In this document: positions 31,479-36,289 of the stretch, piece after piece
How the letters are laid out: every line of letters begins with the position of its first letter
Numbering within the stretch: the first letter of the stretch is position 1
From: a virus
Taxonomy: Duplodnaviria; Heunggongvirae; Uroviricota; Caudoviricetes
Virus record (IMG/VR): IMGVR_UViG_2693429768_000005
Reading direction: 5' to 3' (one strand)
DNA length: 55,692 bases
The notes under the pieces: model-generated
The model's input: the letters and a program-made list of their open reading frames with translations, nothing else
Database searches by the model: none
What the model was told of the DNA's origin: nothing
Position numbers and translations under genes: made by a program

Positions 31479-31706
31479 TTAACGATAAGGTCCAAGCAAA
31501 CGAACAAGCCATTCTTTGTATTTGACGGCAACGTGTTTTGGTGCAAAATATCCTTGCACTTCCTTACCGCCTCGCCACTCCCTTCTAAATTCGCACTCGT
31601 TTTGATACTCCTTTCCGCTTTTACTATCCAGCCAGCAAGCAGGTGAGTAACCTTTTTCACTTCCGAACCGATGCCATATTGATGACAGTAAAACCCTTTC
31701 TTCCAT
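31479..31706 (-). CDS. hypothetical protein (75 aa)
   Basis: ORF with G-rich SD. Confidence 0.35.
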   Translation of the reverse strand: MEERVLLSSIWHRFGSEKGYSPACWLDSKSGKEYQNECEFRREWRGGKEVQGYFAPKHVAVKYKEWLVRLLGPYR

Positions 31707-31729
31707 ATTGCCCCCCAACAAATACGGCT

Positions 31730-31906
31730 TTACGCTGTTCTGTATATCAGTCCGTTATCAAGCAATGTTTGCATGTGTTCGCGATCCATGTCGCTTAATT
31801 CCCAATAAGGAACATCTTCATTCCTTATCATCACCTCTTCGCCTCTTACCAAATAGGCGATGTCAAATACCTTATGCAAATAGATGCCATCTTCGATCTC
31901 GTTCAT
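31730..31906 (-). CDS. hypothetical protein (58 aa)
   Basis: ATG overlaps stop of upstream ORF (ATGA). Confidence 0.35.
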   Translation of the reverse strand: MNEIEDGIYLHKVFDIAYLVRGEEVMIRNEDVPYWELSDMDREHMQTLLDNGLIYRTA

Positions 31907-32085
31907 AGGTCGCTAGCCTTTACCAGTTCACCAGCATCAAGAAATATTTTAATTGTTTCTCGCGTCGTCTTAATGATTGGCGCTACCCACTCGCCACCGC
32001 CAACGCGGATACGAATATCATCGCCTTCTACGCGGTAAAACAGCCTGTCGACTACTGTTGCTGCGTACACGCCATCTTCAATCAT
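31903..32085 (-). CDS. hypothetical protein
   Basis: ORF; start uncertain. Confidence 0.3.
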   Translation of the reverse strand: MIEDGVYAATVVDRLFYRVEGDDIRIRVGGGEWVAPIIKTTRETIKIFLDAGELVKASDL

Positions 32086-32344
32086 TTTTGCGCTCCTTAA
32101 TGGCTCGCATGATGTTAATACGCATAGCGTCACTGAATGCGTATATCGTAATGAAAGGCCAGAAGACTAGCTCGAACCAAATAATGCCGTCACTATCAAC
32201 AGCTTTCTGAAAAGCGCCCATTAAAATGACACCAGCCAGGTAAATTATAACTACCGCAACAATAATGCATTCAATCATCTTCACCCCCAAGATCATGATA
32301 AATATCGTTAGGGTCTTCACCATGTTCCTCGCAAAAACGCTCAA
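32078..32344 (-). CDS. hypothetical membrane protein (88 aa, 2-3 TM)
   Basis: hydrophobic segments. Confidence 0.4.
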   Translation of the reverse strand: MSVFARNMVKTLTIFIMILGVKMIECIIVAVVIIYLAGVILMGAFQKAVDSDGIIWFELVFWPFITIYAFSDAMRINIMRAIKERKND

Positions 32345-32402
32345 ATAGCGCCCAATGTTCAGAAAGAAACATGATTAATAAATTTTTATACCACTCTTCC
32401 AT

Positions 32403-32657
32403 TTAATCATCCTCATCGTCTTCATGTTCAGCCAGGAACTCATCAACCACGCGGCAAGTCACTGGCGGGATGTATTCGAAATCATCAGAATCAAGATCAA
32501 GCGTCCGGCTGTCGCCGTCATCGTCCAGCGTATTCATCCCTAACTCACCGAAAGGGCCATACCCAATATGGCCCAGGTATTCGCATCCAGTAGTAAAGCC
32601 AGGGTATTCGCCTTTGCACCAGATCTTGTATAGCTTACTTGATGCGCTCAATTTCAA
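32403..32657 (-). CDS. hypothetical acidic protein (84 aa)
   Basis: ORF. Confidence 0.35.
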   Translation of the reverse strand: MKLSASSKLYKIWCKGEYPGFTTGCEYLGHIGYGPFGELGMNTLDDDGDSRTLDLDSDDFEYIPPVTCRVVDEFLAEHEDDEDD

Positions 32658-32958
32658 TTCCCCCTTCTACCCCTTCAGTCATTTTGTATTCCGCAAACAG
32701 TTCAGCGCCAAGTAATTCGACATCAGTATCACCAATACCAGGGAACGCCAGATAAGCAAAAATAAGGCTTTTAATTCTATTCAGGTCTTCAAGATGGTCT
32801 GCATTAAAAGGCGGTTCAGTTACATGGAAGCATTTAACGTGCGCGTCGTCTTCAGTGGCTACACGGAAACATGCGCCAGGTTGTCCGGCGAATTGCCCTA
32901 ATGTTTCCTTGCTCGGTAAAGTGCCACGAAAAACTTTAACGCTAATAAATTTAGACAT
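32635..32958 (-). CDS. hypothetical protein (107 aa)
   Basis: ORF. Confidence 0.35.
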   Translation of the reverse strand: MSKFISVKVFRGTLPSKETLGQFAGQPGACFRVATEDDAHVKCFHVTEPPFNADHLEDLNRIKSLIFAYLAFPGIGDTDVELLGAELFAEYKMTEGVEGGIEIERIK

Positions 32959-32961
32959 TTA

Positions 32962-33219
32962 TTATTCTCCTTCATAAAGAATTGCCACCAGTTCGGCATC
33001 TGTTAGCGTGTTGTGATCTTTATAAGTACCGTAGCGGGCAACGAAAGCTATTTCGCCAGCTATTTTCCGCCACATAGGGATAGACTCATTAAAATAGGTA
33101 TTCTCCATTGCCTCCCTGTACGCCAGTTCATAAAAACGCCCGCTATTTACATCTTCAATAACGCGGCTGTATGTGCCATCAACGCTACTAACGCCGCGCC
33201 ACAGCCTGAACACAACCAT
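32962..33219 (-). CDS. hypothetical protein (85 aa)
   Basis: ORF. Confidence 0.35.
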   Translation of the reverse strand: MVVFRLWRGVSSVDGTYSRVIEDVNSGRFYELAYREAMENTYFNESIPMWRKIAGEIAFVARYGTYKDHNTLTDAELVAILYEGE

Positions 33220-33221
33220 AA

Positions 33222-34283: not shown

Positions 34284-34287
34284 GATG

Positions 34288-34515
34288 TTAACCCTCGACT
34301 ACTTCCAGCCCGCGACCCTTGTCGCCTACGAACTCTGCCAGGCTGAATGTATACGACCACGCCGGATTTATGTGATGGTCATCAGCGCCAGCGGCAATTA
34401 GGTCAGCACCGTTAATCATGCAAGTGACACCATCGCTATGAACGACGTTAACCACCTTACCAACAACCTGTTTCAGTGACGGATAACCGTGATCATGCAA
34501 GAATTTGACTTTCAT
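34288..34515 (-). CDS. hypothetical protein (75 aa)
   Basis: ORF. Confidence 0.35.
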   Translation of the reverse strand: MKVKFLHDHGYPSLKQVVGKVVNVVHSDGVTCMINGADLIAAGADDHHINPAWSYTFSLAEFVGDKGRGLEVVEG

Positions 34516-34517
34516 CT

Positions 34518-34796
34518 TTACCTCTTATAAGTAACAGCATCAGAGATCAATAACACCGCCAACATCTCACCGTTATGTAACGGATCTGGAATACCAAAAA
34601 ATATATCGCTTTTACTGTCAGGCACTACTACGCGCATATTTCCCTGTTTGTCTTCATGCACGAACCACGGCTTTTCGTGTGGCTCAAACATGCCGAAAAG
34701 CAATTTAAGATCTATCTCTTCGCCCTTCGTGAATAACGAAACATCCGTTGTGGCTATAACTAACGCTTTCTGATCTGCTGTTTTCTTAGTTCTCAT
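34518..34796 (-). CDS. hypothetical protein (92 aa)
   Basis: ORF. Confidence 0.35.
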   Translation of the reverse strand: MRTKKTADQKALVIATTDVSLFTKGEEIDLKLLFGMFEPHEKPWFVHEDKQGNMRVVVPDSKSDIFFGIPDPLHNGEMLAVLLISDAVTYKR

Positions 34797-35071
34797 TCCT
34801 CTGTCTCCCAGCGTTCAATGCTGATTAAGAAGTCCCGGATAGCATGGCGTTCGTCGCGCGTTGGTTTGCGTTTCCGGTAAATCCTGAAATCGAACCATTC
34901 TTTTTCCTGCTCAAAATCCAGATCGTAAGCAAGCGCCTCAATGTATCCACATTCGTGATACCAGTACGCAATGCCAGCACGAACAAAAAAGCGGGTTTTA
35001 TCCCGCTTGTGTTCATAGATACGCATATTCACCCCGTTAAGCAGTTGTGTAGCTGTCCACCAGCTTTTCAT
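34793..35071 (-). CDS. hypothetical protein (92 aa)
   Basis: ORF. Confidence 0.35.
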   Translation of the reverse strand: MKSWWTATQLLNGVNMRIYEHKRDKTRFFVRAGIAYWYHECGYIEALAYDLDFEQEKEWFDFRIYRKRKPTRDERHAIRDFLISIERWETEE

Positions 35072-35267
35072 CTTTCATTCTGGCAAGCTGGGCGATGTTC
35101 ATCGTGTAGCCGCCATCGGAGAAAAGCCACTCTGCCGTCTTGCGACGAAAAGAAATATCATCATAGTTGCGCGTCCATGTAGTGATCGCTACGCGTTTCC
35201 CATCAGTGGCGAACATAGATAACGCGTTATCAACTACGTCGATAGCCTGCCAGATTTTTAGATCCAT
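35037..35267 (-). CDS. hypothetical protein (76 aa)
   Basis: ORF. Confidence 0.3.
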   Translation of the reverse strand: MDLKIWQAIDVVDNALSMFATDGKRVAITTWTRNYDDISFRRKTAEWLFSDGGYTMNIAQLARMKDEKLVDSYTTA

Positions 35268-35623
35268 GATTTATCCCCGTAAATTTTGAATAATTCCCGC
35301 GCTTCCTGATCTTCGAATAGCTTTATATGCAGATCATGCAGGCGGCGCATAGTGCGGAAGCGCGGTCTGAATTCCTGGTTTCTTTTAATGTACTTACCAC
35401 CAATTGAATAAATATGACCGTATGCATACCATCTATTACCCACCCAAATTAGATATTCTTCACCCTCATAATTAAATCTGATTGTAAGCTCGTCAACCTC
35501 CATTATTAATCCTTTGTCGAGGATGTCGTTTAGCATATCATCCCATTCTTTGAGAAACGGTCGTTGATACATACCGAAAATTGTATTTGCAGCGTGGCAA
35601 AGGTAATCAATGATTATCTGCAT
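35258..35623 (-). CDS. hypothetical protein (121 aa)
   Basis: ORF. Confidence 0.35.
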   Translation of the reverse strand: MQIIIDYLCHAANTIFGMYQRPFLKEWDDMLNDILDKGLIMEVDELTIRFNYEGEEYLIWVGNRWYAYGHIYSIGGKYIKRNQEFRPRFRTMRRLHDLHIKLFEDQEARELFKIYGDKSWI

Positions 35624-35627
35624 ATTA

Positions 35628-35843
35628 TCACCACATCATATAGTAAACGTTATCGTAAGCTAATTGATCCGCGTCTTCTTGCGTCATGTGCCGCGCTTCC
35701 AGAAAGAAATCTTCGTTATGCCATTCACTAACAAGCATTCGCGCCCATTTGCGGCGCTGGCGCTTATTGCGTCGCAGATCATCAAAAGCCTTTAATGCTT
35801 TGTCGTATGCCCTTACAAGGCGTTTGCGGTTACTTTTCATCAT
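35628..35843 (-). CDS. hypothetical basic protein (71 aa)
   Basis: ORF. Confidence 0.35.
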   Translation of the reverse strand: MMKSNRKRLVRAYDKALKAFDDLRRNKRQRRKWARMLVSEWHNEDFFLEARHMTQEDADQLAYDNVYYMMW

Positions 35844-36108
35844 TGTGATCCTTTAAACAGTCGTTATAGCCTTCAATGTATCCGGTTAATCCAGTGTTAC
35901 TAACCGACCAGTCAGCCGAACGGCGCTTGATGGCCTTGTCCATAGTCATAGCATCAACCGGATCTGTTAAGTCTATATATTTCCGCAATTCCGTAACTAT
36001 TACCGCCCTTAATTGTTGTGCATTTGAGTACGTCCTTGCTTTGTCAGTTATTCCGTTTACAAGCTCTCTAAATTCATGATCCTTTAATTTAGGCTTCATT
36101 ATCGTCAC
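35830..36108 (-). CDS. hypothetical protein (92 aa)
   Basis: ORF. Confidence 0.35.
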   Translation of the reverse strand: MTIMKPKLKDHEFRELVNGITDKARTYSNAQQLRAVIVTELRKYIDLTDPVDAMTMDKAIKRRSADWSVSNTGLTGYIEGYNDCLKDHNDEK

Positions 36109-36289
36109 CCCGCTTGTAAATTTTGACAGGCTTAATTGGCACGGCAGGTAATTCGCCTTCGTTTAATGCGCTTGCCATGCCTAATATTAAACGCGCCTCT
36201 GCACCAGTTACTTTCTTACACCATGCGCCGCCCGTTTTATCTTCGAACAAGATAACAGCAAACTGATCGTTTATTTCCAGCTTATCCAT
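36089..36289 (-). CDS. hypothetical protein (66 aa)
   Basis: ORF coupled to Q stop. Confidence 0.35.
   Translation of the reverse strand: MDKLEINDQFAVILFEDKTGGAWCKKVTGAEARLILGMASALNEGELPAVPIKPVKIYKRGDDNEA

Follow-up and report, generated by a model that had tools for sequence, protein, structure and literature searches.

A collinear array of twenty small genes between Q and the lysis cassette, with a promoter-like module beside the holin

The small genes between Q and the lysis cassette

We analyzed the 55,692-nucleotide IMG/VR virus record IMGVR_UViG_2693429768_000005 (Caudoviricetes; this whole stretch of DNA is called the window below), and in it the interval between the gene for the antiterminator Q and the lysis cassette. 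A first-pass annotation made from the letters alone had described a packed minus-strand array of small open reading frames (ORFs) at this place. The ORF list bore this out: positions 31479–36289 of the minus strand hold 20 small genes (o01–o20) in a run of ORFs without a break. The earlier count of 19 ORFs of 46–121 amino acids (aa) had to be corrected to 20 of 43–121 aa, whereas the reported coupling by overlap stood, as 9 of the 19 junctions within the array overlap; 7 more have gaps of ≤10 nucleotides (nt). Coding density is ~96% across the interval, in which only ~206 of 4811 nt are non-coding. The GC content of the block (43–46%) is no different from that of the neighboring phage genes, and tRNA and Rfam scans of the window gave no match.

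The calls of Q and of lysis genes on the two flanks were confirmed. Q matched PF03589 with 105 bits (cut-off 26.7) and aligned with lambda Q (7UBM; phmmer E 4e-39) in two segments, residues 1–114 and 148–238, around an insertion of ~33 aa. This insertion (36570–36670, residues ~115–147) carries extra CxxC pairs and a sub-threshold Pfam match to DnaJ_CXXCXGXG, which suggests a second zinc ribbon. Ahead of Q lie NinG, RusA and a 61-aa ORF. On the other side, the lysis cassette (holin, lysozyme and Rz-Rz1, from 31371 down to 30221) displayed Pfam matches for holin (PF16080, E 1.6e-14), lysozyme and Rz.

For comparison, we used 11 annotated related loci and 42 IMG/VR loci, i.e., 53 loci, or 54 sequences including the window. 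Start codons of o01–o20 were refined by the ribosome-binding site and by the start of PHROG matches, and ratios of nonsynonymous to synonymous substitution (dN/dS) were calculated against orthologues by the Nei-Gojobori method. The genes are listed below in minus-strand order; locus counts are for the annotated loci and then the IMG/VR loci.

36289–37011, minus strand: Q, 240 aa, lambda-type antiterminator
36089–36289, minus strand: o01, 66 aa, flexible; phrog_35000 (E 5e-40); dN/dS 0.07; in 10/11 and 39/42 loci, absent from mEp021
35830–36099, minus strand: o02, 89 aa, divergent (61–71% identity between relatives); phrog_29262; dN/dS 0.24
35628–35843, minus strand: o03, 71 aa, basic (isoelectric point (pI) 9.8); dN/dS 0.13
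35258–35623, minus strand: o04, 121 aa, the largest gene; alpha+beta fold and long basic C-terminal helix with an invariant RPRFRTMRRL
35037–35267, minus strand: o05, 76 aa, family-core, in 11/11 and 42/42 loci; phrog_38280; dN/dS 0.17
34793–35026, minus strand: o06, 77 aa, family-core, in 11/11 and 42/42 loci; dN/dS 0.07; contains hairpin Ta
34518–34796, minus strand: o07, 92 aa, flexible; phrog_33175; dN/dS 0.05; full-length in 3/11 loci (partial in mEp013) and present in 27/42
34288–34515, minus strand: o08, 75 aa, family-core; dN/dS 0.09
34035–34283, minus strand: o09, 82 aa, family-core; orthologue of mEp021_41; 95% identical to the mEp021 locus
33821–34072, minus strand: o10, 83 aa, family-core; dN/dS 0.14; start overlaps the 3' end of o09 by 38 nt
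33564–33704, minus strand: o11, 46 aa, flexible; phrog_22232 (E 1e-33); dN/dS 0.04
33222–33521, minus strand: o12, 99 aa, flexible; no PHROG match; dN/dS 0.25
32962–33219, minus strand: o13, 85 aa, flexible; phrog_32200; dN/dS 0.22
32635–32958, minus strand: o14, 107 aa; phrog_23107; dN/dS 0.34
32403–32651, minus strand: o15, 82 aa, very acidic (pI 4.1, C-terminal EHEDDEDD); dN/dS 0.18
32271–32402, minus strand: o16, 43 aa, acidic (pI 4.2), flexible; phrog_15754 and phrog_21467; dN/dS 0.08
32078–32278, minus strand: o17, 66 aa, membrane protein with two transmembrane (TM) segments; phrog_10061; dN/dS 0.27
31903–32085, minus strand: o18, 60 aa, tandem paralogue of o19; phrog_15318
31730–31906, minus strand: o19, 58 aa; phrog_15318; in 11/11 annotated loci
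31479–31706, minus strand: o20, 75 aa; in 5/11 and 9/42 loci at 92–100% identity
31171–31371, minus strand: holin, 66 aa, first lysis gene

Orthologues of all 20 genes were found among the annotated related loci, and every gene is under purifying selection (dN/dS 0.04–0.34, with dS typically 0.4–1.1). In addition, 18 of the 20 proteins matched PHROG families strongly (E 1e-15 to 1e-60), all of them labeled 'unknown function'. Because selection acts on all 20 and PHROG families cover 18, o01–o20 are genuine genes rather than chance reading frames. Function searches were empty: Pfam, NCBIfam, PADLOC and PDB yielded no significant match for any of the 20 proteins, in agreement with the earlier statement that none has a recognizable domain, and PADLOC-DB defence models gave 0 families for all 20 at E ≤ 0.01. 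Homology to conserved nin-type genes, which the first-pass annotation had named as an alternative identity, was likewise not found; the 20 proteins had no match to Pfam Nin families at E ≤ 0.1 and no homologues with known nin-type functions. The one membrane protein recognized earlier is o17, with a grand average of hydropathy (GRAVY) of ~1.0 and two hydrophobic segments.

By nucleotide comparison, the window is an mEpimmI-type (mEp021-like) temperate coliphage or prophage. Megablast of the block against mEp010 gave 92% coverage at 88.8% identity, and MagusPhagus, mEp554, mEp013, mEp044, mEp021 and mEp515 also matched it. The early region (37012–55692) matched the same phages with 88% coverage and 89.9% identity, and gene order is shared with mEp021 and mEp010. 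The block was also found in a bacterial genome, E. coli MIN12, at 100% coverage and 98.5% identity, and the region occurs in 35 of 5426 complete E. coli genomes. In the Prokaryotic Genome Annotation Pipeline (PGAP) annotation of MIN12, 18 of the 20 ORFs appear, each labeled 'hypothetical protein'. The block is thus not new sequence but already present in public genomes as hypothetical proteins. The mEpimmI phages were described in 2025 as Nus-dependent, non-lambdoid temperate coliphages (PMC11893012); that paper annotates the genes as hypothetical, and the position of the late promoter is not discussed in its text as available to us.

Comparison of the interval across relatives, which the first-pass annotation had proposed, revealed a collinear array with gain and loss of modules. 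The mEpimmI phages (mEp010, mEp013, mEp021, mEp044, mEp515 and mEp554) and the MIN12-type prophages resemble the window in carrying NinG, RusA, the 61-aa gene, Q, small genes, holin, lysozyme and Rz, with the same families in the same order at 86–98.5% nucleotide identity. They differ from it in gene content: the distance from Q to holin ranges from 2.0 kb with 8 genes in mEp021 to 7.1 kb with ~29 genes in the KKa019 prophage (3.1–6.8 kb among the IMG/VR loci), against 20 genes in the window. Five genes (o05, o06, o08, o09 and o10) are present in 53/53 related loci, and o04 is missing only from mEp021; apart from these six and o19, the genes occur in 21–95% of loci. A crude pan-array analysis of 12 loci recovered ~29 families whose order was always kept. 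The array therefore looks like an ancestral, collinear one that has gained and lost modules, rather than a place where insertions accumulate at random; the genes other than the five universal ones and o04 are modules gained or lost by recombination at gene boundaries. As mEp021 is viable and lacks 12 of the 20 genes (o01–o04, o07, o11, o14–o18 and o20), these 12 are presumably dispensable for growth on E. coli K-12.

The region had been taken for a hotspot of accessory cargo in lambdoid prophages. That description fits the uncharacterized genes and the variable length of the interval, but the phage group is non-lambdoid and five genes are universal in it. With a quarter of its genes belonging to the family core, the block does not appear to be simply cargo.

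A promoter-like module beside the holin and hairpins within the array

The stop codon of Q overlaps the ATG of o01 in the window (TAATG), and a TAATG or TGATG junction between Q and the next gene was found in 11/11 annotated and 42/42 IMG/VR loci, and so in 54/54 sequences. At the other end of the array, a ~90-nt region ahead of the holin is the only sizeable conserved non-coding stretch. It contains a candidate module of promoter, pause and terminator, and a terminator scan and an inverted-repeat search identified further hairpins within the array:

31392–31470, minus strand: candidate late promoter, Q-loading site and tR' module; its part from TAAAAT to the T-run lies 20–76 nt upstream of the holin ATG (31371)
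31470–31465, minus strand: −35 of the module, TTGTAG, weak (3/6)
31447–31442, minus strand: −10 of the module, TAAAAT
31434–31429, minus strand: pause element of the module, AACAAT, −10-like, 7 nt past TAAAAT
31414–31396, minus strand: hairpin Tc of the module, ACCCGGC-CCCGC-GCCGGGT, 14 nt past AACAAT, followed by a T-run at 31395–31392
34989–35008, minus strand: hairpin Ta, AAGCGGG-ATAAAA-CCCGCTT then TTTTTGTT, terminator-like, inside o06 (terminator scan)
33745–33778, minus strand: hairpin Tb, 14 bp, ACAAAAUGGCAUUG / CAGUGCCAUUUUGU with a 6-nt loop and a T-run; lies between o10 and o11, where 116 nt are non-coding (inverted-repeat search)

The module is near-invariant in 12/12 loci of the annotated set with the window and in 42/42 IMG/VR loci. 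Across the 54 sequences, the −10 TAAAAT, AACAATGCGAAA and both stem arms are invariant, and the loop, the discriminator and the spacer vary. Variable columns make up ~10% of the stretch ahead of the holin as compared with 37% of holin third-codon positions, and the RNA of the module folds at −27.4 kcal/mol (z −4.8). Invariant elements separated by variable loop and spacer are the pattern that a functional promoter, pause and terminator would give. The same layout is known from two phages with a lambda-type Q. In lambda, the distance from Q to pR' is 77 nt, and tR' terminates the 6S leader; in P22, pR' comes after gene 23, with tR' at +31 to +59 from the start site. The pR' arrangement of lambda and P22, TAAATT-TGACTC-AACGAT followed by a terminator, is the layout of the candidate module. 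No copy of the 91-nt module was found outside the mEpimmI phages, and the Q most similar to theirs in other groups is <40% identical.

Since Q abuts o01 in 54/54 sequences and the sole conserved module lies at the holin end, the late promoter probably comes after the small genes rather than before them. In lambda, P22 and Stx phages, by contrast, the pR'-tR' module stands directly after Q, with cargo downstream of it.

Other candidates were considered. A late promoter upstream of Ta was rejected, as the 3' end of o05 and the 5' end of o06 hold no acceptable −35/−10. A site at 35486 in o04 ('−10 + pause-like', with a plausible −35) was rejected for the family because mEp021 lacks o04. Promoter-like sites numbered 17 in the region against 15.5 ± 4.6 in shuffles, which is no excess. 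An exact 13-nt repeat of the candidate −10 region (ATTAAAATATTTC, minus strand) is found at 31437–31449 and, within o18, at 31941–31953, with AAACAA ahead of both copies; ~0.25 repeats of 13 nt are expected by chance in the span, and the o18 copy may mean nothing. Covariation of T and C at two leader positions 6 nt apart was attributed to haplotype linkage rather than to structure.

Ta is kept in 11/11 annotated and 40/42 IMG/VR loci. In mEp010 (L001, ~7040–7060), paired synonymous changes, CGG>CGC and ACC>ACG, complement each other in the stem, a compensatory change within a coding sequence. Tb is kept in 9/11 and 31/42 loci, its stem being maintained via G-U wobble changes. The presence of terminators Ta and Tb inside the block points to processive antitermination.

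A further terminator-like hairpin followed by eight T was observed at 38151–38169 on the minus strand, in the 5' part or start of the NinG ORF, and a terminator is likewise predicted within NinG of relatives; with Ta, it suggests that intragenic terminators are a recurring feature of the rightward operon. In the 42-nt gap between o11 and o12 (33530–33560), most relatives share a conserved GC-rich hairpin without a T-run, GGGGCC-GGAT-GGCCCC, which is weakened in the window to 5 bp with wobble. It could be an element of RNA stability or processing.

Candidate schemes for expression of the array

We lean slightly towards the reading that the block is a distal, antitermination-dependent extension of the delayed-early operon, situated upstream of the late promoter, with Q acting beside the holin. 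The transcription start, early timing and antitermination dependence are inferred from sequence alone. The rightward delayed-early operon would run through NinG, RusA and Q and then o01–o20, the array forming its distal part. A polymerase modified by an N-like antiterminator (Gp17 in mEp021) would transcribe the array past both Ta and Tb. That transcript would also supply Q, whose site of action would be the promoter, sigma-dependent pause and terminator (Tc) module abutting the holin; there it would turn on the genes for lysis and morphogenesis. In lytic development, synthesis of the small proteins would thus precede late gene expression and not depend on Q, and their roles would be accessory (host takeover, counter-defence or regulation) rather than in lysogenic conversion. 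Gp17 of mEp021 is reported as the N-like antitermination system of mEpimmI phages in PMC11893012. A role in the lytic cycle is favored because o08, o03 and the N-terminus of o02 are related to proteins of virulent rV5-like, Sasha-type and T5/T4-like phages, respectively, and because virions of mEp021 were found to contain the o09 orthologue (PMC11893012).

Several points weigh against this preferred scheme. The −35 is replaced by unrelated sequence in Magus/KKa019-type variants, and the pattern of a −10 followed after 5–8 nt by a −10-like element occurs at 3 sites compared with 1.6 ± 1.3 in shuffles and so, by itself, is no rarer than expected by chance. As the holin neighborhood is generally well conserved, recent shared ancestry could account for part of the upstream conservation. 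That Tc is the 'experimentally demonstrated t5' of PMC11893012 is a guess made via the GenBank label TERM_5. Finally, late synthesis would better explain the finding of the o09 orthologue in virions.

If the early scheme is right, the nin region of lambda (ninA–ninI, from P to Q; delayed-early and N-dependent) would be the closest functional analogue. Both would be part of the rightward early operon, with small and closely packed genes that are mostly dispensable and with embedded terminators needing processive antitermination. Unlike nin, which lies upstream of Q, the block of the window lies downstream of it; none of its 20 proteins matches a Pfam Nin family, and the true NinG and RusA of the window are upstream of Q. 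A second likeness is with the small-gene arrays of virulent rV5-, T5- and T4-like phages, which also consist of dense, overlapping genes of 40–120 aa and include homologues of o08, o03 and the o02 N-terminus; they differ in following other regulatory schemes and in having only 3 of the 20 genes in common with the window.

Were the placement of the module true, a lambda-type Q would sit kilobases from its loading site with an accessory array in between. It would change the prediction of when and how genes in Q–S intervals are expressed, and would call for caution in applying the lambda map to prophage annotation. The array itself is a compact, naturally variable library of ~29 orphan small-protein families and, as the viable mEp021 lacks 12 of the 20 genes, offers candidates for host-takeover and counter-defence screens. 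In other respects, the interval holds hypothetical phage genes of an ordinary kind that are already in public genomes. A more elaborate proposal is possible but doubtful, namely a delayed-early arsenal between Q and a distal Q-loading site, with expression graded by Ta, Tb and Tc and with several of the orphans acting as new host-takeover or counter-defence factors. Candidates within it are the very acidic o15 and o16, o04 with its basic helix (RPRFRTMRRL), the 2-TM protein o17 and the virion-associated o09. In this proposal, a distance of 2–7 kb of genes between Q and its target would be an undescribed wiring of the lambda-type Q switch.

Cargo of the late operon (morons) is the alternative that fares best, and we consider it unlikely. 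Here, the late promoter would lie at or in the 3' end of Q, a Q-modified polymerase would pass Ta, Tb and Tc, and the 20 genes would be late. In Shiga toxin (Stx) phages, late-expressed cargo sits between Q and the lysis genes. The block shares this map position and variable content with the late cargo of lambdoid and Stx phages (stxAB, tRNAs, morons), three serial terminators could all be antiterminated by Q, and the o09 orthologue in purified mEp021 virions (PMC11893012) suits late synthesis. In those phages, however, the module directly follows Q and the cargo lies downstream, whereas in the window nothing separates Q from the first small gene, and the module is found past the last one. By sequence, the stop of Q over the ATG of the first small gene leaves, in all 54 sequences, no intergenic room for a pR'/qut/tR' module between Q and the putative cargo. 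No promoter/pause/terminator module was detectable in the 3' end of Q, the 35486 site in o04 is not universal and mEp021 is viable without o01–o04, and the conserved lambda/P22-like module sits at the holin end. A late-operon cargo hotspot is thus probably the wrong model.

Cargo expressed from the prophage is less probable still. Some of the genes would then serve lysogenic conversion, superinfection exclusion or anti-phage defence from their own promoters in the lysogen. The interval is indeed the most length-variable part of the stretch, and it has features often seen in exclusion genes, namely orphan modules such as o20 and, in o17, a small protein of the membrane. However, PADLOC found no match, promoter-like sites are not enriched and the GC content equals that of the neighbors. 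The genes are translationally coupled, lie on the strand of the lytic operon and are interrupted by terminators, and three of them have relatives in strictly virulent phages. Moreover, a collinear array with a universal core is unlike inserted islands, and the characterized exclusion genes of the group, given in PMC11893012 as the repressor and Lpp lipoproteins, are located elsewhere.

Least of all do we credit a scheme with no separate late promoter, in which polymerase would reach the late genes from the early operon, with Q loading at TAAAAT/AACAAT on elongating complexes to pass Tc, the block still being early: a conserved −35 is missing in some family members and the −10-like element, pause-like element and terminator are invariant, but TAAAAT makes a good −10 hexamer, correctly spaced from the pause element in the manner of lambda and P22, and to our knowledge every characterized Q (lambda, 21, 82) loads at a promoter-proximal sigma70-dependent pause.

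Individual genes and their relatives

The o20 gene is a recently spread insertion module. A 15-nt direct repeat (31467–31481 and 31718–31732) flanks it, and in phages without o20 a single copy of this sequence links o19 straight to the promoter-like region, so that o19 is the final gene ahead of the module; this is the one exchange boundary that is visible. The o20 protein is a near-orphan: a word-indexed search among 5.8e9 proteins retrieved 2 clusters, and an exhaustive HMMER search gave 4 matches, none of them annotated as KilA-N. Its own match to KilA-N (PF04383; 17.5 bits, E 0.0038) lies under the gathering cut-off of 23.8 bits. Two Kazal-repeat matches were rejected as repeat-inflated chance matches. 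The sole credible remote relative is P0103, a metagenomic protein of 152 aa in which an N-terminal o20-like part is fused to a DUF559/REase_MTES_1575 restriction-endonuclease-like domain. This architecture is a hint that the origin of o20 may lie in a mobile nuclease gene, of which it would represent the DNA-binding part.

The o09 orthologue mEp021_41 was detected by mass spectrometry of mEp021 virions and is annotated as 'virion structural protein'; PMC11893012 suggests a relation to RegA/YorC. A profile of 18 o09 homologues had no match among all PDB sequences at E ≤ 10, and the AlphaFold2 (AF2) model, with a predicted local distance difference test (pLDDT) score of 51.6, was too poor for fold comparison; with the profile search empty and the model unusable, we found the suggestion unsupported. 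Homologues of o09 were found in E. coli only. Where o09 and o10 overlap (34035–34072), many relatives have an earlier end of o09, giving a 71-aa form (...LIDEVLK), so that the C-terminal 11 residues are an optional extension.

Among the genes nearer to Q, the N-terminal motif of o02 (~45 aa) is also carried by hypothetical proteins from T5-like and T4-like virulent phages (Klebsiella and Serratia phages by tblastn), and residues 5–45 gave six further partial PHROG matches. Homologues of o03, ~53% identical, occur in Sasha-type siphophages of Salmonella and E. coli, and those of o04 are confined to E. coli, Salmonella and Enterobacter. In mEp021, o05 is the gene directly after Q. Homologues of o08, ~41% identical, lie in small-hypothetical-gene arrays of virulent rV5-like (Vequintavirinae) phages, and an o08 profile found no match in PDB. 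Within the phage collection, tblastn with o14 returned 4 records, all mEpimmI phages. The proteins of o18 and o19 matched each other (blastp E 1e-4) and the same PHROG, as tandem paralogues.

Two variants of the array were observed in relatives. In two prophages (L010, 5460–5921, and L012, 6429–6890), o01 and o02 are annotated as one ORF of 153 aa. Some relatives carry between o02 and o03 an extra gene for an ASCH-domain protein ('RNA-binding protein'), which is absent from the window.

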